A DNA stretch of 64,000 bases from Nitrospirota bacterium (GCA_029858565.1 JAOUEV010000002.1:102428-166427); one strand, 5' to 3'; positions 26,349 to 62,629 are shown, numbered from the stretch's first letter. Made by a program: numbers and translations. Notes: generated by a model from the sequence alone, not told the origin.

Positions 26349-27285
26349 CAGCCTTCCTCAGGTCTGAGATGAATTCGACGGCATGGGTGCCGGAGACGGT
26401 CAGAAGGTCGCAGGTGAGCTTTCCGCGCAGGAGCGGGAGGAGCATCCCGCGCTCCTCTGCCGAGACGCTGTCAGCCTGGAGATTGACGATCACCGGCTCT
26501 TTCAGTCCGGGGAAGTCCTGGAAGCGCATGATCCTGACCGAGATCCCTTCCGCAATGGTCATCCTGAAGCTTCCGCCTGAAGATTCCACGGTCTTGCTGT
26601 TCCCGAGCACTGAGGCGACCGTCTCCCACGCAGTGTCCGAAATGAGGTGATAGACCTTGCGGACCATGCCCGACCGGACGGCCTGGTGCACGTAGTTCCC
26701 GGCTACGATGTGGTACTCCGGCCGTTTTGGACAGTGGTCCGGGTAGGAGTGTTCGAGGATGAGCCTGTTGAGCCGCGCGTAGTCGTCAGCGCTGTTGCGT
26801 GGTATCGGGACCGAGAACGAGTCTGTCAGGGCCAGGTAGCCGGCAAGGCTCGTGATCTGCCCGGATGGATCGGGAAGCCCTTTTCTCAGGAACAGGGGAT
26901 AAAGGCTGAATCGCCTCAGGACGTCAGTGTTCAAGCCCTTGATCGTACAGGAGAAGGTGTCCTGTACGCTTCCCTGCAGGTCCGTCCTGAGCGCATCGCA
27001 GAGCCGGTTCAGGCTTGCCGTATCTCTGAATTCAGTGTCCTGGAACTCATCGGTCCTGTCCTCGATGTCAGCATTCAGATGCCTGTCTATGAGCACGAGC
27101 GTCCTGCCGTGCATCCCCTGCTCGCGCCAGACAGCAAAAGCATCTTGGGGAACGTTCACCTGCCTGACCAGCGGGGAGGGCAGGATCGTCCGGTGCGATG
27201 CGCCGTATTGCTGCAGGAACAGCAGGACACTGATGCAGAACAGGAGCGATATTGCTATGACCGCGATCTTCGATTCCTTGCTCAT
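26335..27285 (-). CDS. membrane-anchored protein of an uncharacterised GT39-associated family (member 1)
   Basis: N-terminal TM anchor. Shares EPVIVN(L/V).(A/D) ... VSG(T/S) blocks with the proteins at 38801..39508 and 41120..42562. Overlaps the downstream GT39 gene by 14 nt. Confidence 0.5.
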   Translation of the reverse strand: MSKESKIAVIAISLLFCISVLLFLQQYGASHRTILPSPLVRQVNVPQDAFAVWREQGMHGRTLVLIDRHLNADIEDRTDEFQDTEFRDTASLNRLCDALRTDLQGSVQDTFSCTIKGLNTDVLRRFSLYPLFLRKGLPDPSGQITSLAGYLALTDSFSVPIPRNSADDYARLNRLILEHSYPDHCPKRPEYHIVAGNYVHQAVRSGMVRKVYHLISDTAWETVASVLGNSKTVESSGGSFRMTIAEGISVRIMRFQDFPGLKEPVIVNLQADSVSAEERGMLLPLLRGKLTCDLLTVSGTHAVEFISDLRKADGTF

Positions 27286-28697
27286 CTTGATGTCCCGAGT
27301 GAGACCGCTGCCCTTGCGTACGCGGCCAGCTCGTTCATGGACCGCACCTTGGAGAGCCGATTGAGGATATATCCGGGCCGCAGGTAGTACTTCCTGACGG
27401 CCTTGTGATGGAGACCGTCAATCTCCTGCCTGGTCAGAGTGTGGCCTTTGACGACCGCGGAACCGTAAGCATATTCGAACAGGCAGCTGTCAGCCGGGTC
27501 CTTGGTTCCGAACAGTCCGTTCTCGACCGCGTACCGGAAGAATGCCGTGCCCGGGAAGGGCGTGGCAACGAAGAAGTTGGCGAAGTCGGTCCTCAGGTCA
27601 CGGGCCAGTCGCATGGTCTGCTCCGCGGTCCCGGTCGTCTCCCAGGGGAGGCCGGTCATGTAGTAGGCAAAGGAAGCGATGCCCGTGCCGCGGATGAGCC
27701 GCACGGAATCCCTGATCTGCTCCACGGAAACCTTCTTGCCGATCTTGTCGAGGATCTCCTGGCTGCCGCTCTCGATGCCGAGGCTGATGAGCGAGCAGCC
27801 CGCCTCCTTCATGAGCGTGAGCGTTCCCTGGTTGATGTTGTCCGCCCGCATGTTCGAGGCCCAGGTGAACCGCAGGCCCGATGCACGGATTGCCTGGCAA
27901 AGCCGCCTCACCCACCCGTCGTCGAAGTTGAAGACATCGGACCAGAAGATGAAGTCCTCGATTCCGTAGGTCCGCAAGCAGTGCCGGACCTCGTCGAGGA
28001 TGTTCTCCGGGCTACGCATCCTGACCTTGCGGCCCGAGACCGGCGTTGCCAGGCAGAAAAAACAGTTGTACGGGCAGCCGCGGGAGCACTTGATGATGCC
28101 CTGGGGCCTGCCCTTGTCCGGCCGGACATAGCGACGGTTATCGATGAGGTGGCGTGCAGGGAACGCCAGGGCATCGAGATCGCTCTGGAACGGCGCATCA
28201 TCGTTCCGGAGGACCTCTTCGCCCCGTCTCCAGGTTATGCCGTGAACCGTTTCCAGGGACTCCCCGGAGACGATCCTTTTGATCAGCGGCTCGGGCTCAC
28301 TGCGCAGCAGAATGTCCACCTCGGGATGGGCCCGCAGGACCTCACGGTCAAAGACCAGGAAATGAGCTCCCTTGGCGATGATCGTCAGGCCCGGCAGGGC
28401 CTTTTTCGCCTCCCTGCATACGGTCAGGTCGGCCAGGAGCGTTGGTGTCGTCGTGCTCAAAACCAGAAGGTCCGGCTTATATTCACGCAGGATAGCTGTA
28501 AATGCGGCCATATCAAGTCTGCTTGCCGGACAGTCCAGGACCTGGCACTCAGCCCCGGCAGCCTCTGCGGACGCCGCCATGTACAGGAGGTCTGTGGGCG
28601 GAAGGGTCGGCGCGATCGGAACTTTACCGGTCGGGACCTGGCATCTGTCCTCGCGGTTAATTAGCCCGGTAGGCGGATATGCAAAGAGAACCTTCAT
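27282..28697 (-). CDS. B12-binding (class B) radical SAM enzyme
   Basis: N-terminal cobalamin-binding-like domain (LVLSTTTPTL). Radical SAM cluster CSRGCPYNCFFC. ~470 aa. Confidence 0.85.
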   Translation of the reverse strand: MKVLFAYPPTGLINREDRCQVPTGKVPIAPTLPPTDLLYMAASAEAAGAECQVLDCPASRLDMAAFTAILREYKPDLLVLSTTTPTLLADLTVCREAKKALPGLTIIAKGAHFLVFDREVLRAHPEVDILLRSEPEPLIKRIVSGESLETVHGITWRRGEEVLRNDDAPFQSDLDALAFPARHLIDNRRYVRPDKGRPQGIIKCSRGCPYNCFFCLATPVSGRKVRMRSPENILDEVRHCLRTYGIEDFIFWSDVFNFDDGWVRRLCQAIRASGLRFTWASNMRADNINQGTLTLMKEAGCSLISLGIESGSQEILDKIGKKVSVEQIRDSVRLIRGTGIASFAYYMTGLPWETTGTAEQTMRLARDLRTDFANFFVATPFPGTAFFRYAVENGLFGTKDPADSCLFEYAYGSAVVKGHTLTRQEIDGLHHKAVRKYYLRPGYILNRLSKVRSMNELAAYARAAVSLGTSR

Positions 28698-28700
28698 AGC

Positions 28701-30119
28701 TCAATCCTGGATCGGAAGGCGGCCCACGATACGAGACCGTTCCCGCATGGTCTCCGCGTCTATGTTGCCGGCCAAATAGTCAGCGACGAGGAAACCTTTG
28801 CCGATAGCATTGTGTGCGTTGTTGTAATCGCTTGAGGCCTCTCTTCCACAGAGGACTATGCCGGAATTTTCAAAGAAAGCCTCGATCCTGTCCTGGGCCT
28901 GATATCGCTCATGGTTCAGCACGGGATATGCACCCGGGCAGCGAACGTTGAACGCCCGGAGGATATCGTTCCTGCCGAACCATCCGAGCTCGAGGACAGC
29001 CTCGGTAAGCACCTGGTCGAACTGCTCATTTGACATAGTATCATAACGGCTGCCGTGATCGCAAATAACATCGCACAGGATGATCGCCTGCCCATCAGGG
29101 CAGAGTTCGGGTGAGAACTGGTCGAATGAAGATAGTCTGTTGAAAATGATATGTTCTTCCGGGAATATGATCACCCTCGCCGGGAGCTGGAAATTCCTGA
29201 CCGCAAGGATGCCGAGCCGCATGGTTCTGGACGGGAAAGCTTCGGCGAGCGGCATGATGGGCGAGGCAAGCGGGGCGGCAAGGTATCCGATCAATGTCCT
29301 GTTGGATATCGTGCTGACCATACGATCGGCGACCAGGTGGTGCTCGCGGCCGTTCTTTTCGTAGGAAATGTGGAAGGGGCCTTTGATCGTCTCTGCCTCG
29401 ATCCGCCTGATGTTCGCGGTGAGCTCGATCACCTGCCCCTGTGACCGGACGAATTCTGCCATCGCATCGGGGATGCGGCCGAATCCCTGCCTTGGGTAAT
29501 AGAACATGCTGACGCCGGGAAGCGACCGACCCCTCAAAAATCGCTTCAGCATTGTGCCAATCGTCGGAAGTTCGAAGCGGATCCGGGCAAAATCCTCATG
29601 CAGGTCTTTTGTTCCCCAGACCTTCCTGATCATCGGAAAGGCGACCATTTCGCTGAAAGGCCTGCCGAAGGAATGCAGGATGATGTCCTCAAAGGTAGTG
29701 TTATCAGTCCGGCGGGAGCTGAGCATTCTGAGAACGGCCTGTGAGCGGGCACGCAGCCAGCCTGCGGCGAAGACCGTGGTAAATTTCAGGCTTGATGCAC
29801 TGCACATGTTCCGGAGTTTCGGGGGATAGGAGTATACGGTCCCGTTAAAGTAGACCCCGTGCTCATTCTCCAGTTCGAGGAGGTCAATTCCCGGCAGTCC
29901 GCGGATCTTCTCCACGATGCCCGGGAGCTGCGGTGAGAGGCGATGCGGGCCGATATCGAATCGGAGACCGTCGTGCTCCAGTGTTCGTGAAAGCCCTCCG
30001 ACTGCCGGCGCTGCCTCAAGCAGGGTCACCTCGAGGTTCTTGCGCCCGCATAGGCCCCAGGCAACGGAGAGGCCGGAGCATCCAGCACCAATGATAACGA
30101 TCCGTGTCTTGTGCATCAT
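28701..30119 (-). CDS. FAD-dependent oxidoreductase (amine-oxidase/PPOX/UDP-galactopyranose-mutase-like fold)
   Basis: Dinucleotide-binding motif IVIIGAGCSGLSVA...LLEAAPAVGG at the N-terminus. GPHRLSP resembles the UGM GPHIF segment. Precise subfamily not resolved. Confidence 0.7.
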   Translation of the reverse strand: MMHKTRIVIIGAGCSGLSVAWGLCGRKNLEVTLLEAAPAVGGLSRTLEHDGLRFDIGPHRLSPQLPGIVEKIRGLPGIDLLELENEHGVYFNGTVYSYPPKLRNMCSASSLKFTTVFAAGWLRARSQAVLRMLSSRRTDNTTFEDIILHSFGRPFSEMVAFPMIRKVWGTKDLHEDFARIRFELPTIGTMLKRFLRGRSLPGVSMFYYPRQGFGRIPDAMAEFVRSQGQVIELTANIRRIEAETIKGPFHISYEKNGREHHLVADRMVSTISNRTLIGYLAAPLASPIMPLAEAFPSRTMRLGILAVRNFQLPARVIIFPEEHIIFNRLSSFDQFSPELCPDGQAIILCDVICDHGSRYDTMSNEQFDQVLTEAVLELGWFGRNDILRAFNVRCPGAYPVLNHERYQAQDRIEAFFENSGIVLCGREASSDYNNAHNAIGKGFLVADYLAGNIDAETMRERSRIVGRLPIQD

Positions 30120-31531
30120 GATCTTCCGCCGAGCAGCATCTTGACTCCCATGCCGATCTTGCGGCCTAGCTGGCCGAACCGGAGATGGGTGATATCGCTC
30201 CAGGCTTCCTTGGCCACAAAGGAGGGGGCGAGATAGAACTCCCGCATCAGGCCGTCCCGGATGTCCGTGAAGGCCCTGTCCAACGCATCGCCCCGCCAGG
30301 ATGGCAGCCGGAAATCCTTGACCGGGTGCAGCACGAATTCCTGCCAGTGGTCCCGGTCATAGACGCCGCTCTTCACGAGCTCGAAATAGAAGTCTGAGAA
30401 GGGGACCGGCAGGAGCGTGTTCATCAGGATGAAGTCCGGCTTGATGAGCTTGATAAAATCGCGAGTTGTCCAGGCCTCCTCGGGGGTCTGGTTCGGGAAC
30501 CCGATGATGAAATAGGCCAGGGACTCCAGCTTGTGGCGGTGCAGGATCTCGAAACCGCGGAGGATATCGTCGACCGTGGTTCCCTTGTTGATGTACTGCA
30601 GGATCCTCGGGTCATGGCTTTCGACCCCTGCCGTGAGCCGGAAACAGCCGGCCTCCTTCATGGCCGCTGCCATCTCGTCGTCAAAGGGCTTCAAACGGGC
30701 CCTCGTGGACCAGCGGAACTTCAGGCCGCGCTGAAGGATCTTGGAGCAGATCTCGTTGACCCGCGATTTGCTGATGTTGAAGGTGTAGTCCAGGATGTGG
30801 ATCTCGTCGAATCCCAGCGACAGGATCTCCTCGATCTCGTCCACGATCCGGTCGGCGCTCTTCGTCGCGTAATACCGGGGCACGTTGCAGAAAGTGCAGC
30901 GGAACGAGCAGCCCCGCGACGCGGTCATGGTGGTCATGACATGCCGGTCCGAGAGGGAGACGTATTTCCTGATGTCGAGCCGCTTCCGGTCCGGGAAGGG
31001 GAAATCATCCATGTTCTTGAGGGGATTTGTCCGGGTGGATCTCACCGAGCCGTCCGGCCCCCGGTAGTGCAGATTATCCACGGCGGAGATATCGCCGGTC
31101 CTTCCCGATGCGTACCACTCCACGAAGCGCGGGAAGGTCTGCTCCGCGGGGCCGGTCAGCATGAAGTCGAAGACCGGGTGCGTCATCGTTTCGGAAGGAT
31201 AGAGGTCGGTATGGGTGCCGCCCACGATGATACCGGTCTCCGGCAGGAACTGCTTCACGTCGGCGGCGAGCCTGACGACCCCGTAGAACCGCTCCGTGAC
31301 CGCCGAGATGCCGAGCAGGTCGGGCTTTTCCCGGAGGATGTTCTCGAGCAGGGTCTGGTAGGGCGTATCGTGGGCATCGTAGAGGATGACCTCGTGCTCG
31401 GGACCGATGTTCCGGACGATGGAGAGCAGGCCGAGGGGCGGATACTTGATGAAATCGTCAAGTACATACTGGGGATTGTAATTGAGCACCGATTCCCCTT
31501 CTCGGGGGCTGATGGTGAGGATGATCTTCAT
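30116..31531 (-). CDS. B12-binding (class B) radical SAM enzyme
   Basis: Radical SAM cluster SRGCSFRCTFCNV. B12-like N-terminal domain. Start at MKIILTI (Met18 of the listed ORF), overlapping the upstream gene stop. Confidence 0.8.
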   Translation of the reverse strand: MKIILTISPREGESVLNYNPQYVLDDFIKYPPLGLLSIVRNIGPEHEVILYDAHDTPYQTLLENILREKPDLLGISAVTERFYGVVRLAADVKQFLPETGIIVGGTHTDLYPSETMTHPVFDFMLTGPAEQTFPRFVEWYASGRTGDISAVDNLHYRGPDGSVRSTRTNPLKNMDDFPFPDRKRLDIRKYVSLSDRHVMTTMTASRGCSFRCTFCNVPRYYATKSADRIVDEIEEILSLGFDEIHILDYTFNISKSRVNEICSKILQRGLKFRWSTRARLKPFDDEMAAAMKEAGCFRLTAGVESHDPRILQYINKGTTVDDILRGFEILHRHKLESLAYFIIGFPNQTPEEAWTTRDFIKLIKPDFILMNTLLPVPFSDFYFELVKSGVYDRDHWQEFVLHPVKDFRLPSWRGDALDRAFTDIRDGLMREFYLAPSFVAKEAWSDITHLRFGQLGRKIGMGVKMLLGGRS

Positions 31532-32745
31532 CGTGCTCTGCCTGATATTCCGGAAACGGTCCGTCGGATGATCCTGTCCCAATCGATGCGCGACAGGAGG
31601 TCCTCGGCGATGAGCTTGTTCCCCCGATCGCCAAGATGGCAGCGGTCATAGAACAGCTCGGGGCGTGCGTCGAACAGCCGTGAATGGTCGATGAAGGTGA
31701 ATTCCTCCTGTTCCGAGAGGCCGCCGGCCCCGTGCGCCAGTGATGCGTACAGAGGGGACACCTTCGACCGCTCTTGCTCCCGGACAGGCTGCAGCACATA
31801 AGCGTAAGGGATCTCGCGGGCCTTCAAGTAGGAACTGACGATTCGGATATTTTTCAGTGCCTTTCGGGGGTAGTCGGAGGCCTGAAAATTCTCGCCGGCC
31901 TTTGTCATGATAAGATCGAACATGTCGCGGCCGTGATTGAACAGCTCGTATTCCTCGATCGCGTAGAGAAAATATTCGCCGTCAACGTCATATTGATTGA
32001 GCAGGTCGGTTTTTCTCAGGTGGACCTGGAACAGGTCGTTGTGGCCGGAATAGGAGATGATCATGTCGGGTTCGTACTCGGTGATGCGATTGAAGATCCA
32101 TGTCCGCTCCTGGGTCGAGGTCCATCCGCCGGCTGCCGCGGTTATGACCTTGATGTCCGCGCCCTCGTACCGTTCGCGAAGCGCCTGCTGAAGATATCCT
32201 GCGATGGTATGGTCCGTATCGGTAGCAAAGGCCCCCCATGCGGTCGAACCGCCGGTCAAAAAGACGCGAACTTCGTTCTCCTTCTTCCTGCCGAGATCGT
32301 CCGGATAGCGGAACTGCTGGTAGTTGTGGAATACCAGACCGTTGATATCACCTGCTGCCGGCGCGTAGGTCGTGAAGGGATCGGGCACCATCGTGGTGTG
32401 CACCACCACCGGTCTGGTCGGTTTCTCAAAATAGAGGGCCGCAGGCAGTTCTTCAGGGAATCGTACGACCATGAGCGGATGATTGGTCTTTTCGGGCAGG
32501 GGATTCTCCTCATAGATATGGATCTTCCGCGTTCCGCTGGAGTAATAGAGCGGTTTGTCCTTCCCGAGTTCGAAGAGGCGGGCAGCGATCCTGTCGGAGA
32601 CGGCGCGTACCCGGACGAACAACAGGCCGTGATGTCCCCGCAGGATATAGCTGGGGTATACGGAAAAGATAAAGATGCCTGTGAGCAGGGTGACGGGGAC
32701 CCAGAGGGCAGCGACCAGAGCGTATTTGATGAATTTCCTGCGCAT
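31528..32745 (-). CDS. membrane-anchored SGNH/GDSL-family hydrolase
   Basis: N-terminal TM helix. Block I-like FLTGGSTAWG. Block V DRCHLGDRGNKLIAE (DxxH). Confidence 0.65.
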   Translation of the reverse strand: MRRKFIKYALVAALWVPVTLLTGIFIFSVYPSYILRGHHGLLFVRVRAVSDRIAARLFELGKDKPLYYSSGTRKIHIYEENPLPEKTNHPLMVVRFPEELPAALYFEKPTRPVVVHTTMVPDPFTTYAPAAGDINGLVFHNYQQFRYPDDLGRKKENEVRVFLTGGSTAWGAFATDTDHTIAGYLQQALRERYEGADIKVITAAAGGWTSTQERTWIFNRITEYEPDMIISYSGHNDLFQVHLRKTDLLNQYDVDGEYFLYAIEEYELFNHGRDMFDLIMTKAGENFQASDYPRKALKNIRIVSSYLKAREIPYAYVLQPVREQERSKVSPLYASLAHGAGGLSEQEEFTFIDHSRLFDARPELFYDRCHLGDRGNKLIAEDLLSRIDWDRIIRRTVSGISGRAR

Positions 32746-32847
32746 GAATATCCTTGGACAATCGAACCATTATAACACGCTGAGACGCTTTCGGAAAAGG
32801 ATAGAAAGGCCGTCCCCGCGAGGAAGCTTGAGACGAGGAAATTAGCC

Positions 32848-37505: not shown

Positions 37506-37550
37506 GGGGTACCGTCCTTTGTGCGCCCGAGAGCGGCAGGGCCGCCCGCG

Positions 37551-39508: not shown

Positions 39509-39537
39509 GCCTGTCCGACGGCCCTGTCCGTTCCGAC

Positions 39538-44872: not shown

Positions 44873-44942
44873 ACGCGGGGGGGCTGCGGCGGATCACCAC
44901 GACGGACCGGCCGGGACGCGGCACGCGGGAGAAAGGGGTCTG

Positions 44943-46907: not shown

Positions 46908-47039
46908 AGGGCTTTAATAGATTGCGGGGGCCACCAGGGCCTGGACGGCCTTTACCACGGCCTCCAGACGTGACCGGAGGCGATCTCGTCGCGTCGCATC
47001 CCTCGGAGATGCGGCCGGGAAGGAATTGGGAAGACGCAC

Positions 47040-49016: not shown

Positions 49017-49077
49017 GCGGATTATAAGATCGCGCGCCTGCGCCGGCGGTCCTGACCGGCCAGGGAGGAGGAACAGT

Positions 49078-51993: not shown

Positions 51994-53376
51994 ATGAACA
52001 TCGCGCTAATCATCCCGCCTTCGCCGGGCAGGACAAACATCATCAGGATGATCGACTGCAGCCATGAGGCGAAGGCGAACTATCTCTGGCAGCCGAATGA
52101 CTTCATGATCATCACCTCCCGGGCCGAGCCCGATGACGACGTGCAGTTCGTCGACGGCACGGCTGATGCGCTGGATAACGACCAGTTCCTGGAACTGATC
52201 GATGCTGTCCGGGGGGATCTTGTGATCATCGCGCTCTCCAGCGTGTGCTGGGAGTCCGACTACGCCTATTTTCTGAAGGTCAAAGAGCGGTTCGCGGCGA
52301 TACCACTCTATGTGCTGGGCGACATCTTCCTTGAGGAGGCTTATCGTCGACACATCCTCGAACACTGTGACGGGATCATTGTCAATCCTTACGTGCTGGA
52401 CCTGCGGTCCCTCGCGACGCAGCGAAAGGACAGGACCGGGAGACTTTCGGGAGTCTGTATCACGGCCGATGGCCCGTTGTTTCCCGAAGGCAAGCGGGCG
52501 GTTGCCGTTACTAGCAGCCCCCCGCGTCACGAGCTGTTCCAGAAGACCGGCTACCGATTTCCTTTCGCAATGCATGTCCGCTTCACGACGGTTACCACCA
52601 TGTGGGGCTGCCCCTTCACCTGCACATACTGCTCGGACTCGAAATTCCCCCCTATCCTACGGTCCTACGAGGATGTTCTACGCGAGCTCGTCCATGTCGC
52701 GAATCTCGGCATCCGAGAGATTTTCTTCGCGGACAAGGTCTTCGGATTCAACCGGAAGAGCATTGATCCGTTGCTCGCGACAATGCGCGAGCGGTTTTCC
52801 TTCTCCTGGAGCTGTTATTTCCATCCGCAGCTCTGTGATCGGAACCTCCTCCAGGACATGAAGGCGGCCGGCTGCCACACGATTATCATCGGCGTAGATT
52901 CGGCCGATGTCCGCTCGCTGAAACGATATCGCCGCTACACAGAGAGGGAGCAGGTCGAACGCGTCATAGCGGAAGCAAACGATCTGCGGATCGATGTTTG
53001 TGCGGACTTCATCCTAGGGCTGGAGCATGAAGACGAAGCGGACATCCTTCGCACGATCGAATATGCCCTTGAAATTCCAATCGATTTCGCATCGTTCAAT
53101 ATTGCCGCGCCACTGCCCGGGTCGGATATCAGGCGGTCGATGAATGAGGCGGGGGTCTTGAAGTTCGGCAGGGAAGGCTTCGATACCTGTGGACGGTCGG
53201 GGATCCTGGGCAACAGGAACATCACTGCGAGACGCCTGCGCGAACTGCGGAAAACTGCGTTCCGCCGTTTCTACCTGCGGCCATCCTATCTTCTGCGACG
53301 ACTTCGGCGGACGAGGTCGGTGGAACATCTGCTAATCCAGGTGCAGGAAATGATCTCGATGATCCGGAAGATCTGA
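51994..53376 (+). CDS. B12-binding (class B) radical SAM enzyme
   Basis: Radical SAM cluster MWGCPFTCTYCSDS. N-terminal B12-like domain (DLVIIALSSV). 460 aa. Confidence 0.8.
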   Translation: MNIALIIPPSPGRTNIIRMIDCSHEAKANYLWQPNDFMIITSRAEPDDDVQFVDGTADALDNDQFLELIDAVRGDLVIIALSSVCWESDYAYFLKVKERFAAIPLYVLGDIFLEEAYRRHILEHCDGIIVNPYVLDLRSLATQRKDRTGRLSGVCITADGPLFPEGKRAVAVTSSPPRHELFQKTGYRFPFAMHVRFTTVTTMWGCPFTCTYCSDSKFPPILRSYEDVLRELVHVANLGIREIFFADKVFGFNRKSIDPLLATMRERFSFSWSCYFHPQLCDRNLLQDMKAAGCHTIIIGVDSADVRSLKRYRRYTEREQVERVIAEANDLRIDVCADFILGLEHEDEADILRTIEYALEIPIDFASFNIAAPLPGSDIRRSMNEAGVLKFGREGFDTCGRSGILGNRNITARRLRELRKTAFRRFYLRPSYLLRRLRRTRSVEHLLIQVQEMISMIRKI

Positions 53377-53427: not shown

Positions 53428-54906
53428 ATGAAGGATGAACGGACCGTACTGCTGATTAATCCCTGCTACGACAAAAGCGATATGCTGGGCCCCTTTGCAC
53501 GCTATATTTCTTCCCAGCTCCCGCTGTCGCTCGGACTGCTTGCCGGCTATTTGCTGGAAAGAGGGATTCCCGTTGAGATTGTTGACGAACAGTTGCGGCA
53601 GGCCGACGGCCAGCACTTGCGCGCTCTCCTTGATACGGGGGCAGTCCGCGTCGTCGGGATCTCGGTTCTCACCCTGACCTCAGCACGGGCATATGAGCTA
53701 GGAGCCCTGATCAAGCGTTTGTGGCCGCAGATAACCGTTGTCATGGGCGGTGTTCATGTCACGCTTCTGCCCGAAGAGCCCCTCGCCAGGGGGGCTGCAG
53801 ACATTGTGGTGAGAAATGAGGGCGAGGTCACCTTTTATGAGATCGTCAGCCGAATCCACGCTGGTAGCCCGTACGGCGATGTTGTGGGGGTCTCCTACGT
53901 GCGGGAAGGAAAGGTCGTTCATAATCCGGAGCGGACGCCCGTGGACGAGCTCGACAAGCTTCCTGTCTTCCCCTATCACCTTTTTGAGGAGAATAGTGCA
54001 CGATACCAATTTGGCAATATGCTGACATCACGCGGATGTCCCTACGAATGCATCTTTTGCTCCCAGCGGGCGATAAGCGGTCGCCGATACCGCGTTCAAT
54101 CTCCTGAGCGGACCTTTCGGGAGCTTGAGCGGCTTGTGTTCCACTATGGTCAGAGGTTCATTTTCATCAATGATGATAATTTCCTGGTACAACCGCAAAA
54201 GGTGCGTAGATTGTGCGAACTGATCATTCGACGGGGATTTCCTGACGATGTCAGGATCGGATTCAACGGGCGGGGCGATTCGCTGGACCCAGACCTGCTC
54301 CGGGACATGCGAGCAGCCCGTTTTTCTTTCATACTTATCGGTTTTGAGACCGGTTCCGAACGGCTGATGAGCATGGTAAAGAAGGGTGAGACGGTCAGCC
54401 AGATCGCTGAGGGGGTCAGGGTGGCAAAAGAGGCCGGCTTCACCGTAGGCGGACAGTTTATCCTTGGTTTTCCGACAGAGACGCGGCGCGAGTCTTTCCG
54501 GACCATTTGGCATGCACTTCGGCTCCCTATTGATTTCGTCCGGTTCAATCTCCTGGTGCCGTATCCAGGGACCGAGGTGCACGCTATGGTGCGTCGAGAA
54601 AAGGATCGCCTGGCACACGACTGGACCGGCTATGCGACCCATGGGGGGCTCACGGGAAAGGGCGCGCCCTATGTTCCGGAGGGACGGTCTGCGCGGGAGC
54701 TGGTGTCCCTTCAGTGGATCGGCCATCTGCTCTTCTACCTCCGTCCCCGCCAGCTCCTGAACATGGGGAACATGCGGTATGCCACGGGCGGGCAGGTAAT
54801 GGTGCCCGAGACCACCTCGCTGCGGGGTTGTCTTGAGTTTCTGGGATTTGCCTTCCAGTTGCTCATGTACCTGGTCGTAGGTGCGGTACGGAGCAAAAAG
54901 CGCTGA
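53428..54906 (+). CDS. B12-binding (class B) radical SAM enzyme
   Basis: Radical SAM cluster SRGCPYECIFCSQ. N-terminal B12-like domain (VRVVGISVLT). 492 aa. Confidence 0.85.
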   Translation: MKDERTVLLINPCYDKSDMLGPFARYISSQLPLSLGLLAGYLLERGIPVEIVDEQLRQADGQHLRALLDTGAVRVVGISVLTLTSARAYELGALIKRLWPQITVVMGGVHVTLLPEEPLARGAADIVVRNEGEVTFYEIVSRIHAGSPYGDVVGVSYVREGKVVHNPERTPVDELDKLPVFPYHLFEENSARYQFGNMLTSRGCPYECIFCSQRAISGRRYRVQSPERTFRELERLVFHYGQRFIFINDDNFLVQPQKVRRLCELIIRRGFPDDVRIGFNGRGDSLDPDLLRDMRAARFSFILIGFETGSERLMSMVKKGETVSQIAEGVRVAKEAGFTVGGQFILGFPTETRRESFRTIWHALRLPIDFVRFNLLVPYPGTEVHAMVRREKDRLAHDWTGYATHGGLTGKGAPYVPEGRSARELVSLQWIGHLLFYLRPRQLLNMGNMRYATGGQVMVPETTSLRGCLEFLGFAFQLLMYLVVGAVRSKKR

Positions 54907-56069: not shown

Positions 56070-56166
56070 TCTCCGATTTCACAATCCCTTCCGGTAGTGC
56101 GGCATTGGTGAGGCGCAAAAGATCCGCCTGCAAACCCAGCGAAATCCCAAACAGGAGAAAACCATA

Positions 56167-56195: not shown

Positions 56196-56225
56196 GCATA
56201 ACAAATTGAATTTATAGGAATTTCA

Positions 56226-57296
56226 ATGTCTGATGAGTTTCGCATCGACAGCCATAAGCTTATCTTCCATCCGCGGCGGGTGGCGGAATGGTTGGCTGGC
56301 GATCAGATATATCCTCTGTACGCCGAGATATCCCCTTCCGGTGCCTGCAATCATCGTTGTACCTTCTGCGCTCTCGATTACATGGAATATAAGCCACGGT
56401 TCCTTGATACGGCCGTTCTGAAGGACCGCCTCACGGAAATGGGCCGTCTGGGGCTTAAAAGCGTCATGTATGGAGGAGAAGGAGAGCCCTTTCTGCACAA
56501 GGACATTGGTGAGATCATCGTTCATACGAAACGATCGGGTATCGATGTCGGGATAACCACGAACGGCGTGCTGCTGACCGAGAAGCTCTCGACCCGTATC
56601 CTTGGCAGCACGGCCTGGATCAAGGTCAGCCTGAACGCAGGATGCGCGGAAACCTACGCCAAGGTCCACCGGACCAAGCCTGATGATTTCGACCGGGTCT
56701 TCGAGAACCTCAAGATGGCCCTCAAGATCAAGCAGGAGTCCGGCGCCGGCTGCACCATCGGCGTGCAGACCCTGTTGCTTCCGGAGAATGCCCAGGAGGT
56801 CGAACAGCTTGCTGAGAAGGCAAAGGAGACCGGTCTCCGATACGTGGTCGTCAAACCCTATTCCCAGCATCATAAGAGCCGCACCCAGACCTATCGTGAT
56901 GTGGACTATGCACAATTCCATCACCTCAGGGATAAGCTTGCCCGGTTCCAGAGCAAGGACTTCAGCGTTATCTTCCGCGAACAGACCATGAAAAAGATGA
57001 AGCGCACGATGCGGGGGTATGAACGCTGTCTGGCGCTGCCTTTTTGGTCCTATATCGATTCGGGCGGCAATGTATGGGGTTGCAGCGCCTATCTTGGCGA
57101 TGACCGGTTCCGGTACGGGAACATTCACGAACAGACCTTTGAACAGATCTGGACCGGGCCGCTTCGCAAGGCGAACCTGAGCATGGTGGCCGAACAGCTC
57201 GATCCCGAAGCGTGTCGCATGAACTGCCGGATGGATGAGATCAATCTCTACCTCTGGGAACTTACCCATCCGAAGGACCATGTGAATTTCATATAA
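56226..57296 (+). CDS. radical SAM protein with C-terminal SPASM/twitch-like Cys-rich domain
   Basis: Cluster CNHRCTFC. C-terminal cysteines (CLALPFW...GCSAY...CRMNC) and GNIHEQTFEQIW typical of SPASM domains. Tail NLYLWELTHPKDHVNFI is shared with the paralogue at 60145. Confidence 0.7.
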   Translation: MSDEFRIDSHKLIFHPRRVAEWLAGDQIYPLYAEISPSGACNHRCTFCALDYMEYKPRFLDTAVLKDRLTEMGRLGLKSVMYGGEGEPFLHKDIGEIIVHTKRSGIDVGITTNGVLLTEKLSTRILGSTAWIKVSLNAGCAETYAKVHRTKPDDFDRVFENLKMALKIKQESGAGCTIGVQTLLLPENAQEVEQLAEKAKETGLRYVVVKPYSQHHKSRTQTYRDVDYAQFHHLRDKLARFQSKDFSVIFREQTMKKMKRTMRGYERCLALPFWSYIDSGGNVWGCSAYLGDDRFRYGNIHEQTFEQIWTGPLRKANLSMVAEQLDPEACRMNCRMDEINLYLWELTHPKDHVNFI

Positions 57297-57338
57297 ACAG
57301 TAGCCAGTAGCATGTAGCCAGTAGCCGGGAACATATCC

Positions 57339-58313
57339 ATGCGAAAAGAAATATCAAAGGATATATTGCAAAAGCTCTTCACCACCATGCTTACCATCCG
57401 CACGGTGGAGGAGCGGGTGGCCGAGCTCTATTCCGAACAGGAAATGAAATGTCCGGTCCACCTCTGCACAGGGCAGGAAGCGATCGCCGCGGGTGTCTGT
57501 TCCCATCTTGCGAAGGATGATACGATCTTCAGCACCCACCGGTCCCATGGACACTGCATCGCTAAAGGGATGGACCTGAAACCGCTCGTGGCCGAGCTCT
57601 ACGGCAGGACAACGGGCTGCGCACGGGGCAAGGGCGGTTCCATGCACCTGGTCGCCCCGGAGCTTGGCATCCCCGGCACCACGGCAATCGTGGGCGGATG
57701 CATTCCCCTTGCTGTTGGAGCGGCATTGTCCTCAGTGCTTCAGGGAAAGAGGGGGCAGGTGTCAGTGGCGTTCTTCGGCGACGGTGCTGTTGACGAAGGG
57801 ACCTTCTACGAAAGCATGAACTTCGCGTCCCTCAAGGGCCTGCCCGTGGTCTTTGTGTGCGAGAACAATAATTACGCCACCAACTCTCCCCAGTCAGCGC
57901 GCCAACCGGCAGTGCCGATCGTTGACCGGGCGCCGGCGTACGGCATTCCCGGTGTTGCTGCAGACGGGAACGATGTCCTGGCTGTCCATCGCGCGGCAGG
58001 AGAGGCCATTGAACGGGCGCGGAACGGAGCCGGTCCAACTCTTCTGGAATTCCGGACCTATCGCTGGAAAGGCCATGTGGGGCCGACGTCGGACATCGAA
58101 TCCGGATGCCGGCCCGCTGATGAACATGAGGAATGGCTCAGAAGATGCCCCCTTGACCGGTTCAAAGCCTATTTGCGGGAGAAGGACCTCCTGTCCCAGC
58201 ATGATATGAACCACGTTACTGTCGAAGTGGAGCGGTTGGTGAACGATGCGATCGAGTTCGGGAAGAAGGGACCATTCCCCGACGCGGCGGAGCTGTACGA
58301 TCACGTGTGGTAA
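57339..58313 (+). CDS. TPP-dependent 2-oxoacid dehydrogenase E1 component, alpha subunit
   Basis: E1_dh family motifs: TPP-binding GDGA..EG (FFGDGAVDEGTFYESMNFA) followed by CENNNYA. Also HLCTGQEA and GKGGSMH. 324 aa. Confidence 0.85.
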   Translation: MRKEISKDILQKLFTTMLTIRTVEERVAELYSEQEMKCPVHLCTGQEAIAAGVCSHLAKDDTIFSTHRSHGHCIAKGMDLKPLVAELYGRTTGCARGKGGSMHLVAPELGIPGTTAIVGGCIPLAVGAALSSVLQGKRGQVSVAFFGDGAVDEGTFYESMNFASLKGLPVVFVCENNNYATNSPQSARQPAVPIVDRAPAYGIPGVAADGNDVLAVHRAAGEAIERARNGAGPTLLEFRTYRWKGHVGPTSDIESGCRPADEHEEWLRRCPLDRFKAYLREKDLLSQHDMNHVTVEVERLVNDAIEFGKKGPFPDAAELYDHVW

Positions 58314-58321
58314 CAAAAACT

Positions 58322-59371
58322 ATGCCCTGGACAAAAATACAAGCAGATGAGGCCGGCCGGCCGGGGATCTTCGGAGCTTCCGCGGGAACAGCCCGGGAAC
58401 TGTCTTATCGCGACGCGATCAAGGAGGCGCTTGCACAGGCCCTGGAGCGCGACAAGCGCGTGTTCCTGATCGGCGAAGGCATTGACGATCCCGGCGGCGT
58501 GTTCGGCACCACGGTCGGCCTGAAGGAAAAATTCGGCAGGGACCGTGTCATGGACATGCCGATCGCTGAGAACGGCCTGACCGGCGTGGTGAACGGGGCC
58601 GCCATGACGGGCATGCATCCCGTGATGATCCATATGCGGGTCGATTTCCTGCCCATGGCCATGGACCAGATGGTGAACCACGCGGCAAAGTGGAGCTACA
58701 TGACCGCGGGCCGGGTGAAGGTGCCGGTCACGTTTCGGGCCATCGTGGGCAGGGGCTGGGGTTCCGCTGCTCAGCATTCCCAGAGCCTCCAGTCGCTCTT
58801 TGCGCATATTCCGGGGATCCAGGTGCTGATGCCAGCTTCTCCCTACGATGCCAAGGGCATGCTGCTTTCCTCGATCGCCGGCGACCGGCCAACGCTGATC
58901 ATCGAGCATCGTTGGCTCTACGACCAGACAGAGGCAGTGCCTGAAGACCCCTATTTTGTCCCGTCCGGAAAGGCGCTCGTGCGAAGACCGGGCAAAGACA
59001 TCACGATCGTTGCTACATCCTATATGGTCTACGAGGCCATGCGAGCCGCAGCGGAACTGGAAAAAGCGGATATAAGCGCCGAAGTGATCGATCTCCGGTC
59101 GATCCAGCCGCTTGACGGGAACGCGATCATTGATTCGGTGAAGAAGACCGGCAGACTCATAGCCGCGGACATGGGATGGAAGCTCTGCGGCGTTTCCGCA
59201 GAGGTCGCCGCGATCGCGGCTGAGCACGCACACGATAAGCTCAAGGCGCCGGTGCGGCGCATTACCCTGCCGGCGACGCCGACGCCTGCGAGCAATGTGC
59301 TCGAAAAGGCCTATTATCCGACGTTCGAGGATATTGTGAGAACGGCAAAGGAAATGATTGGCAACGTATGA
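58322..59371 (+). CDS. TPP-dependent 2-oxoacid dehydrogenase E1 component, beta subunit (transketolase-like)
   Basis: Start at Met6 of the listed ORF. Motifs LIGEGIDDPGGVFGTT, ENGLTGVVNGAAMTGMHP and the C-terminal transketolase-C-like domain. 349 aa. Confidence 0.85.
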   Translation: MPWTKIQADEAGRPGIFGASAGTARELSYRDAIKEALAQALERDKRVFLIGEGIDDPGGVFGTTVGLKEKFGRDRVMDMPIAENGLTGVVNGAAMTGMHPVMIHMRVDFLPMAMDQMVNHAAKWSYMTAGRVKVPVTFRAIVGRGWGSAAQHSQSLQSLFAHIPGIQVLMPASPYDAKGMLLSSIAGDRPTLIIEHRWLYDQTEAVPEDPYFVPSGKALVRRPGKDITIVATSYMVYEAMRAAAELEKADISAEVIDLRSIQPLDGNAIIDSVKKTGRLIAADMGWKLCGVSAEVAAIAAEHAHDKLKAPVRRITLPATPTPASNVLEKAYYPTFEDIVRTAKEMIGNV

Positions 59372-60132
59372 ATACTTACCAGATCACCGCTGTCATGCCC
59401 TCTCTGAACGAGGAAAAGAATTTATCTTCGGCGGTCCAGAACGTGCTCGATTCCTACCAGCGCCTCGGCATCAAGGGCGAGGTCCTGATCGTGAACGACG
59501 GCAGCACCGACGGGACCGGCAGGCTCGCCGAGGAGTTCAAGCACAAGGATCCCTCGATCCAGGTCATCCACCACGCTGCGCCGCAGGGCATCGGCGGATC
59601 CTTCTGGGACGGGGTCAAGGCTGCACGCGGCGAAGTGGTGGTCATGATACCCGGGGACGGGGAGAACGACGCAGCAGAGATCCTGCGCTATCTGCCGCTC
59701 ATGGAGCAGGTGGATATGGTAGTCCCGTATGTGTTCAATCGCCAGGTGCGGTCCTGGTTCCGCAGAAAGCTTTCGAACCTCTACCGGGGGATCATCAACA
59801 TCACCTTCGGAACCACGCTCAATTACATGAACGGCACTGTGCTGTACCGGAAATGCATTCTCGACGACATCGAGCTCAAGGCGCGCGGATTCTTCTATCA
59901 GACGGAACTTCTGATCAAGTGCATCCGCAGGGGATATCTCTATGCCGAGGTTCCTTATGCGCTGCTGCAGCGGGCCGCGGGAAGGTCGAAGGCCACGAGC
60001 CTGAGGTCACTTAAGAACGTGATGCAGGCCTATCTCACCCTGCTGCTGGAGATACATATTGCACGTCCAAGCCACACTGCTCCTGCTGTTGATTCGCGGA
60101 CCGCGGCCCGGTGGAAAGGCCTGCAAGCCTAG
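59368..60132 (+). CDS. GT2 polyprenyl-phosphate sugar synthase (Dpm1/Ppm1/GtrB-like)
   Basis: GT-A motifs AVMPSLNEEKNL, IVNDGSTDGT and the DxD-type PGDGEND. 254 aa. Start overlaps the E1-beta stop (ATGA). Confidence 0.8.
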   Translation: MNTYQITAVMPSLNEEKNLSSAVQNVLDSYQRLGIKGEVLIVNDGSTDGTGRLAEEFKHKDPSIQVIHHAAPQGIGGSFWDGVKAARGEVVVMIPGDGENDAAEILRYLPLMEQVDMVVPYVFNRQVRSWFRRKLSNLYRGIINITFGTTLNYMNGTVLYRKCILDDIELKARGFFYQTELLIKCIRRGYLYAEVPYALLQRAAGRSKATSLRSLKNVMQAYLTLLLEIHIARPSHTAPAVDSRTAARWKGLQA

Positions 60133-60144
60133 AACCGTGAGATT

Positions 60145-61263
60145 ATGAGCGATAGAACCACTGACAAGATCATCCTCGACGGCCACAAGATCGAATGGCA
60201 CCGGGACCGGGTAGAGGCCTGGCTCCGGGGCGAACGCATCGCGCCGATCACGATCGACTGTGCGCTAACCCGGGCCTGCACCTACCGGTGCGTCTATTGC
60301 TATGGCCAGCTCCAGGCGAACGACGAGAAACAAATGACCAGGGACGTCATCTTTCGGTTCCTCGACGACGCGGCCGAGATCGGCGTGAAGGCCGTCAGCT
60401 TTGTTTCGGACGGGGAGAGCACCTGTTCGCCCCATCTTTACGACGCCATCCTGCGGGGGAAGCACAACGGCCTGGATATGGCGCTCGGCACGAACGGTTA
60501 CCTCTTGAAGGACGAGCGGCTTGAAGAGATCCTTCCTGCCCTGACCTACCTCCGGTTCAATATCTCCGCGGCGGACCCTAAGCGGTACGCTGAGATCCAC
60601 GGTTGTACGGTCAAGGAATATGAAAAGGTCATCGGCACCATCAGGAAAGCCGTGGCGATCAAGAAGGCGAAGAACCTTGAGGTGACCCTCGGTCTCCAGA
60701 TGGTACTGCTGCCGCAGTTCCAGGACCAGATCATCCCGCTGGCGAGGCTCGGGAAAGACCTCGGTGTGGACTACCTGGTGATCAAACACTGCAGCGACGA
60801 TGAGCAGGGCAGCCTGGGCGTGGACTATTCCCGCTACGAGGTCATGGTGGACATCCTGAAGGAGGCTGAGGAACTGTCCTCGCCGGATTATCTCGTGCGC
60901 GCCAAATGGTCCAAGATCCTGTCCGGCGGGAAACGGTGCTATTCCCGATGCTATGGTCCGCCGTTCATCATGCAGTTCTCCGGTTCGGGACTTGTGGCGC
61001 CCTGCGGCATGCTGTTCAACAGCAAGTACAAGAAATACCATATCGGGAACATTGCTGAAAAGTCGTTCAAGGAGATCTGGAAGAGCGACCGGTATTGGGA
61101 AGTGATCGACCTGATCGCATCGGAGCAGTTCGATGCCCGGACCATGTGCGGTTCCCTTTGTCTCCAGCACAAGGTGAACGAGTACCTCTGGGAGCTGAAG
61201 CTCGGGAAGATCAAGCTTCGGACGCCGGGCGGCGCTCCGCCGATGCACGGGAATTTCATCTGA
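60145..61263 (+). CDS. radical SAM protein with C-terminal SPASM/twitch-like domain (paralogue of 56226)
   Basis: Cluster CTYRCVYC. C-terminal CYSRC...CGMLF...CGSLC cysteines. Tail NEYLWELKLGKIKLRTPGGAPPMHGNFI, colinear with the 56226 product. Confidence 0.7.
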   Translation: MSDRTTDKIILDGHKIEWHRDRVEAWLRGERIAPITIDCALTRACTYRCVYCYGQLQANDEKQMTRDVIFRFLDDAAEIGVKAVSFVSDGESTCSPHLYDAILRGKHNGLDMALGTNGYLLKDERLEEILPALTYLRFNISAADPKRYAEIHGCTVKEYEKVIGTIRKAVAIKKAKNLEVTLGLQMVLLPQFQDQIIPLARLGKDLGVDYLVIKHCSDDEQGSLGVDYSRYEVMVDILKEAEELSSPDYLVRAKWSKILSGGKRCYSRCYGPPFIMQFSGSGLVAPCGMLFNSKYKKYHIGNIAEKSFKEIWKSDRYWEVIDLIASEQFDARTMCGSLCLQHKVNEYLWELKLGKIKLRTPGGAPPMHGNFI

Positions 61264-61297
61264 GGGGGCCGGGGATGCTGCGCAAGGCGAAAGAGAC

Positions 61298-62629
61298 ATG
61301 AAACTCCTGCTGATCTGCCCGCCCTTCAGTGAACACAGCCAGAAGGACAAGGGAATGCCGATCGCTCCGCCGGTGCTCGAGTATCTGGCGGGGCTCACCC
61401 GGCGGCTGCGGCCGGACATCGAGATCGCGCTTCTCGATGCAAAGCATGAGCACTTCGACGCCGGGCTGATCGACGCGGACCTTGTCGGTATCTCGGTCAT
61501 GACGGCCCAGGCCACATGGGCCTACCGCGCCGCGGACGCGCTCCGGGAACGCGGTATCCGGGTGGTGCTGGGCGGCATCCATCCGACTGCCATGCCGGAG
61601 GAGGCATCGGCCCATGCCGATGCCCTGGTGCTGGGCGAGTGCGAGAATGTCTGGGCCGAGGTGCTGCGGGATGCGGAGCAGGGAAGGCTCGGACCCCGCT
61701 ACCAGGGAGGGCTGCCGGAGCTGAACGATCTCGCTCCGCCGGTCACGGACCGCTGGAACCAGCGGTACATGTTCGGCTATTTCCAGACTGCCCGCGGGTG
61801 CCCGCACCGCTGTAGTTTCTGCTCGGTCCACAAGTTCTTCGGAAACCGGATCAGGCTGCGCCCGATCGGCGAGGTGATCCGCGAGGTCGCCGCGAACGAA
61901 CGGCGGCTCTTCTGGTGCATCGACGACAATGTCTGGGGCGTGAACCCGAAGCGCTCGATCGAGCTGTTCCGGGAGATGAGCACCACGGTACGCGGGAAGT
62001 GGTGGTTCGGGTCCGGTGACCTCCGGACGGTGCAGCAGCCCGAGGGGGACCAACTGCTCAAGTACGCGCGGCGGGCCGGGCTCACGGCAGTGATGCTCGG
62101 CTGGGAGACCGAGAACATCGCCAGTCTCGAGGAATACCGCGCAATGACCAAGCAGGGGAGCGACCGGCGGGACGCGCTCAGAAGGATCCGCGACCACGGC
62201 ATCGATGTGATGCTCTTCATCGTCGTCGGCGGCAGGAATGACACGAAAAGGGATTTCGATGACATCCTGAAGCTCTGCGATGACCTGCAGGTCTCGGCCC
62301 ATCCGGTGATGTTGACCCCGCTGCCCGACACGGAGCTGTTCAGGCAGTATGAGCCCTACCTCTACCCGGAGATGGACTGGGACCTCTACGACGGGAACCA
62401 TGCGGTGTTCGATCATCCCACCATGGACCCGCTGGAGCGGGAAGCCGAGTTCATCAAGCTTCGAACGGCGATCTTCACCCCCGGGCGCATCCTGTCGCGC
62501 ATCCGGAAGGTCTCGTGGAAAGGATTTCCCATGAGCCATTTCTCGTCGTTCATGCTCCAGTATCCGCAGGGCAGGGCGTTCAAGGACTATGCACGGACGT
62601 GGATGCAGAAGCATCCGGAGTACTCGTAA
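61298..62629 (+). CDS. B12-binding (class B) radical SAM enzyme
   Basis: N-terminal B12-like domain (MKLLLICPPF...DLVGISVMT). Cluster ARGCPHRCSFCSV. 443 aa. Confidence 0.85.
   Translation: MKLLLICPPFSEHSQKDKGMPIAPPVLEYLAGLTRRLRPDIEIALLDAKHEHFDAGLIDADLVGISVMTAQATWAYRAADALRERGIRVVLGGIHPTAMPEEASAHADALVLGECENVWAEVLRDAEQGRLGPRYQGGLPELNDLAPPVTDRWNQRYMFGYFQTARGCPHRCSFCSVHKFFGNRIRLRPIGEVIREVAANERRLFWCIDDNVWGVNPKRSIELFREMSTTVRGKWWFGSGDLRTVQQPEGDQLLKYARRAGLTAVMLGWETENIASLEEYRAMTKQGSDRRDALRRIRDHGIDVMLFIVVGGRNDTKRDFDDILKLCDDLQVSAHPVMLTPLPDTELFRQYEPYLYPEMDWDLYDGNHAVFDHPTMDPLEREAEFIKLRTAIFTPGRILSRIRKVSWKGFPMSHFSSFMLQYPQGRAFKDYARTWMQKHPEYS

Follow-up and report, generated by a model that had tools for sequence, protein, structure and literature searches.

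Enzymes in which a B12-type (cobalamin-binding-type) domain stands ahead of a radical S-adenosylmethionine (SAM) core carry out some of the hardest biological reactions, and most of them are without a known function. Among the described members, HpnJ converts, by genetic evidence, hopanoid-linked glucosamine to a cyclitol ether, and it provides a precedent for a B12-type radical SAM enzyme acting on a membrane-lipid-bound sugar made by an enzyme of glycosyltransferase family 2 (GT2). AprD4 of apramycin biosynthesis (structure 6fd2) is a radical SAM 1,2-diol dehydratase acting on the aminoglycoside sugar paromamine, and the class B C-methyltransferases include MgmA/QCMT, TokK, CysS, GenK, Fom3 and HpnP/HpnR. 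Thiamine-dependent two-carbon branching or chain extension of sugars is carried out by YerE and by E1 alpha/beta enzymes of the AviB1/B2 type. Three-component extracytoplasmic glycosylation is performed by a polyprenyl-phosphate sugar synthase, a flippase and a membrane glycosyltransferase of the GT-C type, with auxiliary enzymes that diversify the sugar; in the abstract of Kelly et al. 2024 (PMC11127046), the auxiliary enzymes named are epimerases, and radical SAM enzymes are not among them. The stretch of DNA compared here with these systems is a window of 64,000 nucleotides from a Nitrospirota bacterium (GCA_029858565.1, JAOUEV010000002.1:102428-166427), which carries five genes for B12-type radical SAM enzymes, named rS1-rS5 in order of coordinate. 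The original prediction, made from this sequence alone, had placed the five in one glycan locus and had taken five paralogues to imply multiple iterative C-methylations or an unusual C-C bond chemistry, on the glycan or on an isoprenoid or lipid carrier.

From sequence comparison, rS1-rS5 are proposed here with moderate confidence to be anciently diverged tailoring enzymes, which would act in separate modules of an envelope glycosylation region and would not be iterating methylases. The pairwise identity among the five proteins is only 22-29%, and therefore they are old paralogues, not recent duplicates. They are split over two divergent arrays, not contained in a single operon, and are distributed over at least three modules that are conserved independently of one another. 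No curated NCBIfam family, methylase or not, is reached at cut-off by any of the five, and AprD4 is the closest structure for three of them. Since no curated family is reached and AprD4 is the best structural match of rS1 and rS3, iterative C-methylation is unproven, and the step from five paralogues to repeated methylation is not supported. The clustering of the five genes is not due to chance, because they lie in tight, often overlapping, co-directional arrays that are syntenic in two related loci (L169 and L171; L numbers denote loci). The features of the window are as follows.

25110-26348, minus strand: PMT/PMT_2-type GT-C membrane glycosyltransferase (Pfam PMT 60.7 bits, PMT_2 56 bits; at least 6 transmembrane segments)
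26335-27285, minus strand: protein of 316 amino acids (aa), flanked by rS1 and the PMT gene, with a single N-terminal transmembrane segment
27282-28697, minus strand: rS1, B12-binding-domain radical SAM enzyme (Pfam), 471 aa, CxxxCxxC at residue 208
28701-30119, minus strand: FAD oxidoreductase, amine oxidase/CrtI-type (Pfam Amino_oxidase and NAD_binding_8)
30116-31531, minus strand: rS2, B12-binding-domain radical SAM enzyme (Pfam), 471 aa, CxxxCxxC at 225, numbered from the TTG at 31582
31528-32745, minus strand: GDSL/SGNH hydrolase (Pfam Lipase_GDSL_2), opening the minus-strand array, with a 4-nucleotide overlap with rS2 (31528-31531)
35232-40710, minus strand: second envelope block, with a membrane protein carrying tetratricopeptide repeats (membrane-TPR, 757 aa), a PMT-type GT-C (37551-38819), a 235-aa protein and a GDSL/AlgX-like hydrolase
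41120-51983, plus strand: TPR protein, ResB, CcsA, three polytopic membrane-TPR proteins and a glycosyltransferase of family 9 (GT9, 49078-50007)
51994-53376, plus strand: rS3, radical SAM enzyme with a degenerate B12-like N-terminal domain, 460 aa, CxxxCxxC at 206
53428-54906, plus strand: rS4, B12-binding-domain radical SAM enzyme (Pfam), 492 aa, CxxxCxxC at 204
56226-57296, plus strand: SPASM1, radical SAM/SPASM enzyme (Pfam), first gene of the core cassette
57339-59371, plus strand: E1 alpha (57339-58313) and E1 beta (58322-59371), stand-alone thiamine-diphosphate enzyme
59368-60132, plus strand: GT2 glycosyltransferase (Pfam Glycos_transf_2), 254 aa, without transmembrane segment
60145-61263, plus strand: SPASM2, radical SAM/SPASM enzyme, unusually conserved
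61298-62629, plus strand: rS5, B12-binding-domain radical SAM enzyme (Pfam), 443 aa, CxxxCxxC at 168, most divergent of the five
62647-64000, plus strand: 5' part of a 594-aa polytopic membrane protein running off the window end (open frame; source-contig gene call; TTG start at 62647)

It can be seen that the minus-strand array has the order GDSL hydrolase, rS2, FAD oxidase, rS1, 316-aa protein and PMT-type GT-C, with neighbouring genes 3 nucleotides apart or overlapping by 4-14 nucleotides. The second minus-strand block lies at 35232-40710, and the plus-strand array extends from 41120 to the window end. The latter starts with the TPR protein, ResB and CcsA and continues with the three polytopic membrane-TPR proteins, GT9 lying between the second and third, followed by rS3 and rS4; after rS4 come two small open reading frames (ORFs), SPASM1, E1 alpha, E1 beta, GT2, SPASM2, rS5 and the 594-aa membrane protein, which has a weak, sub-threshold PMT_2 match (E=0.001). 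Two minus-strand ORFs in this last part, 61256-62647 and 62644-63528, were rejected as spurious, as they have no domains, odd codon statistics and an open plus-strand frame opposite; both face real plus-strand genes, the second covering the 5' part of the 594-aa gene. The window is part of a 305-kb metagenome contig, which runs on past the window end (stretch L170) with the rest of the 594-aa gene, a 286-aa radical SAM enzyme, YfhO, a methyltransferase, an epimerase and two GT2 genes. About 7.6 kb past the window end, between two GT2 genes, lies a sixth gene for a B12-type radical SAM enzyme (495 aa; L170 18949-20436), whose product is 50% identical to rS1, hence of the same family. The count of five is thus curtailed by the window edge. 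Glycan genes in the window comprise the two PMT-type GT-C, GT2 and GT9, joined just past its end by YfhO and the two further GT2. The phrase "one glycan locus" is apt in view of these surrounding genes, though loose, given two divergent arrays with the cytochrome c biogenesis genes ResB and CcsA inside one of them. The region upstream of 25 kb is unrelated and contains alanine dehydrogenase, a sensor kinase, Ogg, a MacB-type ABC system and multihaem cytochromes. The GC content is lower (0.48-0.50) at 12-16 kb, within 12001-24425, ahead of a 928-aa NHL/FG-GAP/BACON protein. The multihaem cytochromes are very large (ORFs of 1318 and 900 aa; shorter in the source-contig calls) and carry the Geobacter CxxxxCH...CxxCH motif.

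The genes predicted at 27282, 30116, 51994, 53428 and 61298 are real, each with a CxxxCxxC radical SAM core. Their coordinates correspond to exact ORFs with the third-position GC bias of real genes, exactly one CxxxCxxC is present per protein, and the Radical_SAM domain (PF04055) is found in all five at 48.7-89.8 bits against a cut-off of 29.5. The rS2 ORF reaches back to a TTG at 31582 (30116-31582), and the likely start is at 31531, which gives 471 aa as called on the source contig. The cobalamin-binding-like N-terminal domain, also predicted for all five, is significant in rS1, rS2, rS4 and rS5 (PF02310, 46-57 bits against a cut-off of 32.1), but no Pfam match at E<=0.01 was obtained for rS3. 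For rS3 the domain is supported by homology and predicted fold: BLASTP aligns its residues 34-427 to residues 34-438 of rS1, the N-terminal half included, and its AlphaFold model (pLDDT 83) has an N-terminal beta-alpha-beta, Rossmann-like domain and matches full-length AprD4 at TM 0.72-0.75. The alignment used for this model contained paralogues, and the model is therefore supporting rather than independent evidence. The architecture of rS1-rS5 is class B-like, with an N-terminal Rossmann-type domain ahead of the radical SAM core, as judged for rS3 from homology and predicted fold.

Cobalamin in class B enzymes is bound base-off, without a histidine ligand, and there is no universal sequence motif. 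AprD4, which sits in the B12 radical SAM similarity network, and ArsL share the class B architecture yet bind no cobalamin (PMC12931638, 2026 review). Class B architecture by itself means neither methylation nor B12 use. In the window, TokK, OxsB and CysS, which are true cobalamin enzymes, align across the B12 domain of rS1, rS2 and rS4, so that a real cobalamin domain in these three is weakly favored; phmmer alignments of AprD4 are limited to the radical SAM core. No cobalamin riboswitch or any other Rfam family was found in the window. Additionally, the alignment of the rS1 family contains an invariant N-terminal REDRC motif (residues 15-20 region, Cys19), with Q as the next residue in at least 90% of sequences. 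Besides CxxxCxxC, Cys267 and Cys301 are also invariant (numbering of the protein encoded at 27282). The extra cysteines could be ligands of an auxiliary cluster or have a catalytic role. The rS1 model is least confident in the loop after the REDRC motif (residues 22-28).

The best-scoring NCBIfam models for the five proteins have cut-offs of 481-750 bits, and all scores are far lower. For rS1 these models are HpnJ (214 bits, aligned residues 49-451), BchE (190) and ApyD (140); for rS2, ApyD (132.5), BchE (132), PhpK (129) and HpnJ (127.5); for rS3, HpnJ (98); for rS4, HpnJ (161), ApyD (156) and BchE (152); and for rS5, BchE (85). The list thus mixes methylases (PhpK and ApyD) with non-methylases (HpnJ and BchE). 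Taken over rS1-rS5 in order, HpnJ (TIGR03471, cut-off 577.6) gives 214, 127, 98, 161 and 38 bits, and BchE (TIGR02026, cut-off 481) gives 190, 132, 63, 152 and 85 bits; the scan of the window genes revealed no hopanoid genes, and no bacteriochlorophyll genes are present. None of the methylase models (HpnR, KedN5, TsrM-type, MgmA, PhpK, Sden_1168 and RiPP C-methyltransferase) is reached, the best being PhpK with 129 against 600 for rS2; rS4 has 109 against 360 for MgmA and 99 against 650 for HpnR. In the sequence search of the PDB, AprD4 is the best match for rS1, rS2 and rS3, and the protein C-methylase MgmA (9ccb) is the best match for rS4 and rS5, with OxsB and TokK next for rS4. The AlphaFold model of rS1 (pLDDT 88.6) has AprD4 as its best fold match (TM 0.74-0.77), and for both the rS1 and rS3 models AprD4 is followed by MgmA, TsrM, OxsB, CysS and TokK at TM 0.58-0.70. 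Judged by their MgmA match, C-methylation by rS4 and rS5 is possible. Some relatives of rS4 (P0292 and P0297; 39-40% identity) are fusions of about 750 aa, composed of a B12-type radical SAM enzyme and a class-I SAM methyltransferase domain. A C-terminal membrane anchor of rS4 was considered as a sign of a lipid-linked substrate and rejected, as only 6 of 58 homologues have it.

Compared to the described systems, the window enzymes show partial likeness in each case. Sugars or small molecules are the substrates of the closest solved structures, among them AprD4 with paromamine. AprD4 is similar to rS1-rS3 in size and in having an N-terminal Rossmann-like domain with a radical SAM core, and its fold matches rS1 and rS3 at TM 0.72-0.77; however, the identity is only 19-23%, and the AprD4 model (NF033070) stays far below its cut-off of 500 with 123, 75, 78 and 61 bits for rS1-rS4. 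AprD4 binds no cobalamin (PMC12931638), while four window proteins keep a B12-binding domain detectable by Pfam. Unlike the AprD4 system, the window has no identified AprD3-like partner. HpnJ is a B12-type radical SAM enzyme and the top NCBIfam match for rS1, rS3 and rS4, but the scores are far below 577.6 and no other hopanoid genes were seen in the window. The class B C-methyltransferases have the same domain order and CxxxCxxC motif, although no curated-model cut-off is reached by rS1-rS5. As in three-component glycosylation systems (GtrABC, CsbB/YfhO), GT2 genes here accompany GT-C genes (PMT or YfhO) and have sugar-modifying enzymes at their flanks, but no flippase was identified and the GT2 of the window lacks a membrane anchor. 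To our knowledge, there is no known example of radical SAM tailoring in three-component glycosylation.

The strongest evidence for a sugar pathway comes from the core cassette around SPASM2, which was surveyed in 80 metagenome loci anchored on this gene (L088-L167), with ORFs clustered and the clusters annotated. GT2 is a neighbor of SPASM2 in 38 of the 80 loci, a split transketolase in 25, an HldE-like kinase/nucleotidyltransferase in 19, a GmhA-like isomerase and an epimerase/dehydratase in 18 each, E1 alpha/beta in 17 and a DegT aminotransferase in 15. Further recurrent neighbors are a SPASM1-like enzyme, nucleotidyltransferases, GT9 and a GSU2086-family protein; SPASM1 is present in 28 of 40 long loci. 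Gene content of this kind belongs to a nucleotide-sugar pathway whose product is most likely a heptose or chain-extended sugar, and the assignment of the core cassette to a sugar pathway is well supported. The link of the region to glycans made in the original prediction is upheld by comparative genomics, which in other phyla connects the B12-type genes with sugar-nucleotide and GT-C genes. SPASM2 is about 77-87% identical across Nitrospirota, Omnitrophota, Planctomycetota, Magasanikbacteria of the candidate phyla radiation (CPR) and Deltaproteobacteria, and 70% identical in a Gastranaerophilales metagenome-assembled genome (MAG). Its neighbors GT2 and E1 are only about 50% identical, which points to an unusually strong constraint on SPASM2. 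The nearest known relatives of SPASM2 act on nucleotides (MoaA and viperin), with weak matches; no close solved structure was found for it, and SPASM1 reaches no NCBIfam family.

E1 alpha/beta and the split transketolase share the slot between the two SPASM genes (for example in L101, L102 and L105) and occur together in only 1 locus, which looks like a non-orthologous replacement of a thiamine-dependent step. E1 alpha has no NCBIfam match at cut-off, E1 beta passes a broad subfamily model only, and no E2 or E3 gene is near them. A stand-alone E1 alpha/beta in a sugar cassette may resemble the thiamine-dependent sugar pathways of YerE and AviB1/B2-type enzymes. The B12-type radical SAM genes do not belong to this fixed core: only 22 such ORFs occur in 15 of the 80 loci, they are at most 38% identical to the window proteins and none is orthologous, and in several loci a non-orthologous one lies directly downstream of SPASM2, in the position of rS5. 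These genes therefore behave as interchangeable, lineage-specific additions to the core. The rS5 orthogroup itself is small, with about 10 representative clusters at 42% identity or more. A GSU2086-family protein (cluster c15; 376 bits against a cut-off of 250) is found with HldE and GmhA upstream of the cassette in L090, L093, L094, L099 and others, and the HldE, GSU2086-family and GmhA genes of the cassette correspond to the sugar operon GSU2085-2087 of Geobacter sulfurreducens. In that species GSU2085-2087 are hldE, a hypothetical gene and gmhA, and transposon insertions in them impair growth on electrodes (PMC5585712). The class B architecture is already known, but neither the SPASM/thiamine-enzyme/GT2/SPASM core nor the linkage of nine radical SAM enzymes, six of them B12-type, to GT2 and GT-C genes was found described in the literature searched.

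The minus-strand module of rS1 and rS2 is kept in L169, with rS2 83%, the FAD oxidase 67%, rS1 74%, the 316-aa protein 43% and PMT 53% identical. The FAD oxidase adjoins an rS1 orthologue in L003, L006, L168 and L169 at 47-67% identity. The order is YfhO, FAD oxidase, rS1, YfhO in L168 and FAD oxidase, rS1, 755-aa protein in L006. It can be seen that in more distant lineages the pair of FAD oxidase and rS1 is kept beside a different GT-C, of the YfhO type. In L003, which belongs to the Gastranaerophilales MAG, a SPASM gene, an rS2-like gene (39%), the FAD oxidase (47%) and rS1 (50%) lie directly beside SPASM2 (70%), GT2 (51%) and YfhO; a split transketolase is close by. L003 thus brings together genes separated by 30 kb in the window, which argues for a functional link between these two window modules. 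The FAD oxidase has no close solved structure and no NCBIfam match at cut-off, with weak N-terminal matches to CrtI and HpnE, and the 316-aa protein (26335-27285) has no Pfam or NCBIfam match. PMT/PMT_2 is above cut-off for both 25110-26348 and 37551-38819, and the second envelope block has a syntenic counterpart in a Nitrospirae MAG (locus L008), with 70% identity of the PMT. The rS1 family is large: several phyla have homologues at 45-57% identity, and a search of GTDB species genomes gave 304 matches. In 49 of 80 loci (L008-L087, mostly Gastranaerophilales), an rS1 homologue (43-50% identity) is directly behind a same-strand gene for a transporter of the major facilitator superfamily (MFS). 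A context shared by all rS1 homologues was considered and rejected, most of the Gastranaerophilales ones being without FAD oxidase and GT2 genes.

The module of rS3 and rS4 is kept in L171, together with CcsA, the membrane-TPR genes, GT9 (79%), rS3 (69%), rS4 (65%), SPASM1 (83%) and E1 alpha (79%), the rS3 orthologue being directly upstream of the rS4 orthologue. In L172, an rS4 homologue (51%) is beside a 619-aa protein without a Pfam match, a split transketolase, GT2, a sulfotransferase and an epimerase. Each of the membrane-TPR proteins is predicted to span the membrane 8-9 times, and the N-terminal membrane domains of all four have no Pfam match even at E=1. Within 41120-46907, ResB and CcsA overlap stop-to-start with the TPR gene upstream and the membrane-TPR gene downstream, and L008, L169 and L171 show the same linkage of ResB/CcsA with membrane-TPR genes. 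The membrane-TPR proteins could serve in cytochrome maturation rather than in glycan synthesis.

In the reading preferred here, the core cassette would build an unusual cytoplasmic sugar, probably heptose-derived and chain-extended or branched. The thiamine enzyme would add a two-carbon unit, the SPASM enzymes would perform oxygen-independent oxidation or rearrangement, and GT2 would load the sugar onto an acceptor or polyprenyl phosphate. The B12-type radical SAM enzymes would add lineage-specific edits, such as AprD4-like deoxygenation or dehydration, HpnJ-like rearrangement or C-methylation, and GT-C enzymes of the PMT or YfhO type would pass the product to a periplasmic acceptor outside the cytoplasmic membrane. 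A broader form of this proposal is tentative and must be called doubtful: the region would be one case of a widespread anaerobic pathway not yet described, whose conserved SPASM/thiamine/GT2/SPASM core would make a higher-carbon or branched sugar that interchangeable B12-type enzymes would edit, possibly on polyprenyl phosphate, before GT-C transfer to the envelope. The editing of a lipid-linked glycan donor by radical SAM enzymes would, as far as we know, be new.

Several observations weigh against the tailoring proposal. Every step of the mechanism is inferred, since equivalog cut-offs are reached by none of the region's enzymes. The GT2 lacks a membrane segment and is only weakly similar to polyprenyl-phosphate glycosyltransferases, with 31-59 bits, all below cut-off, to AglJ, ArnC, PpgS and dolichyl-P hexose transferases. 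The window was searched for HldE, GmhA, epimerase and aminotransferase genes and none is present, and the scan of the window genes gave no flippase of the GtrA, MATE or a similar type. In gut Gastranaerophilales, most rS1 homologues have an MFS transporter gene and housekeeping genes as neighbors instead of glycan genes. A GT-C label for the four membrane-TPR proteins would have topology as its sole basis and was not relied on. Moreover, ResB and CcsA lie within the plus-strand array, where stop and start codons overlap, and cytochrome maturation may therefore be the role of a part of the region.

That all five are cobalamin-dependent C-methyltransferases, placing several methyls on one glycan or its lipid carrier, is unlikely. 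The significant Pfam B12-binding domain in four of the five, the alignment of the N-terminal domains of rS1, rS2 and rS4 with TokK, OxsB and CysS, the best PDB match of rS4 and rS5 to MgmA, the presence of PhpK and ApyD among the top weak matches and the fusion of some rS4 relatives to a class-I methyltransferase domain are all consistent with methylation. However, the resemblance to characterized methylases falls away in the profile scores, which are far below cut-off for HpnR (37-99 against 650), for KedN5 (20-103 against 700 for four proteins, none being listed for rS3) and for the TsrM-type tryptophan 2-C-methyltransferase (21-38 against 500 for four proteins, with no match for rS5). The non-methylases HpnJ and BchE are top or near-top for all five, and AprD4, which binds no cobalamin, ranks first by structure for rS1 and rS3 and by sequence for rS1-rS3. 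The low mutual identity and the separate modules are also unlike one iterative set, the B12 domain of rS3 is undetected by Pfam, and the window holds no cobalamin riboswitch.

The same radical SAM enzymes might instead work with the CrtI-like FAD oxidase on a lipid (a polyprenyl carrier, or a hopanoid-like or membrane-spanning lipid) and not on a sugar, and this explanation appears more unlikely still. The FAD oxidase belongs to the amine oxidase/CrtI/HpnE superfamily, HpnJ, the best model of rS1, is an enzyme of hopanoid side-chain biosynthesis, 55-105 bits are reached with the "lipid biosynthesis B12/radical SAM" model, an MFS transporter precedes the rS1 homologue in 49 of 80 loci, and the partners are membrane proteins. 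All lipid-type scores are, however, far below the cut-offs of 360-578, neither the window nor related loci yielded isoprenoid, squalene-hopene cyclase or fatty-acid genes, and the recurrent partners are glycosyltransferases and sugar-nucleotide enzymes. There is no specific support for rS1-rS5 as lipid cyclases. Finally, the region might mature the neighboring multihaem cytochromes (genes at 14164-24425), with the radical SAM enzymes modifying haem or apocytochromes. ResB and CcsA within the plus-strand array, their recurrent linkage to membrane-TPR genes and weak BchE, NirJ and AhbD matches agree with such a role, but it is very improbable: neither ResB/CcsA nor cytochromes accompany the pair of rS1 and FAD oxidase, the module of rS4 and the cassette of SPASM2 in L003, L006, L168, L172 and the majority of L088-L167, where these are linked with sugar genes, and tetrapyrrole-family scores are far below cut-off.

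The tailoring proposal concerns a class of enzymes whose "class B" architecture should not be equated with methylation, nor even with B12 use. Conserved gene order ties at least six radical SAM enzymes of the B12 type, and three of other kinds, to glycosyltransferases in uncultured anaerobes of several phyla, gut Melainabacteria included. If the proposal is true, these organisms would carry surface sugars made by oxygen-independent radical chemistry that are chemically undescribed, and this would have a bearing on antigen diversity, phage receptors and enzyme discovery.

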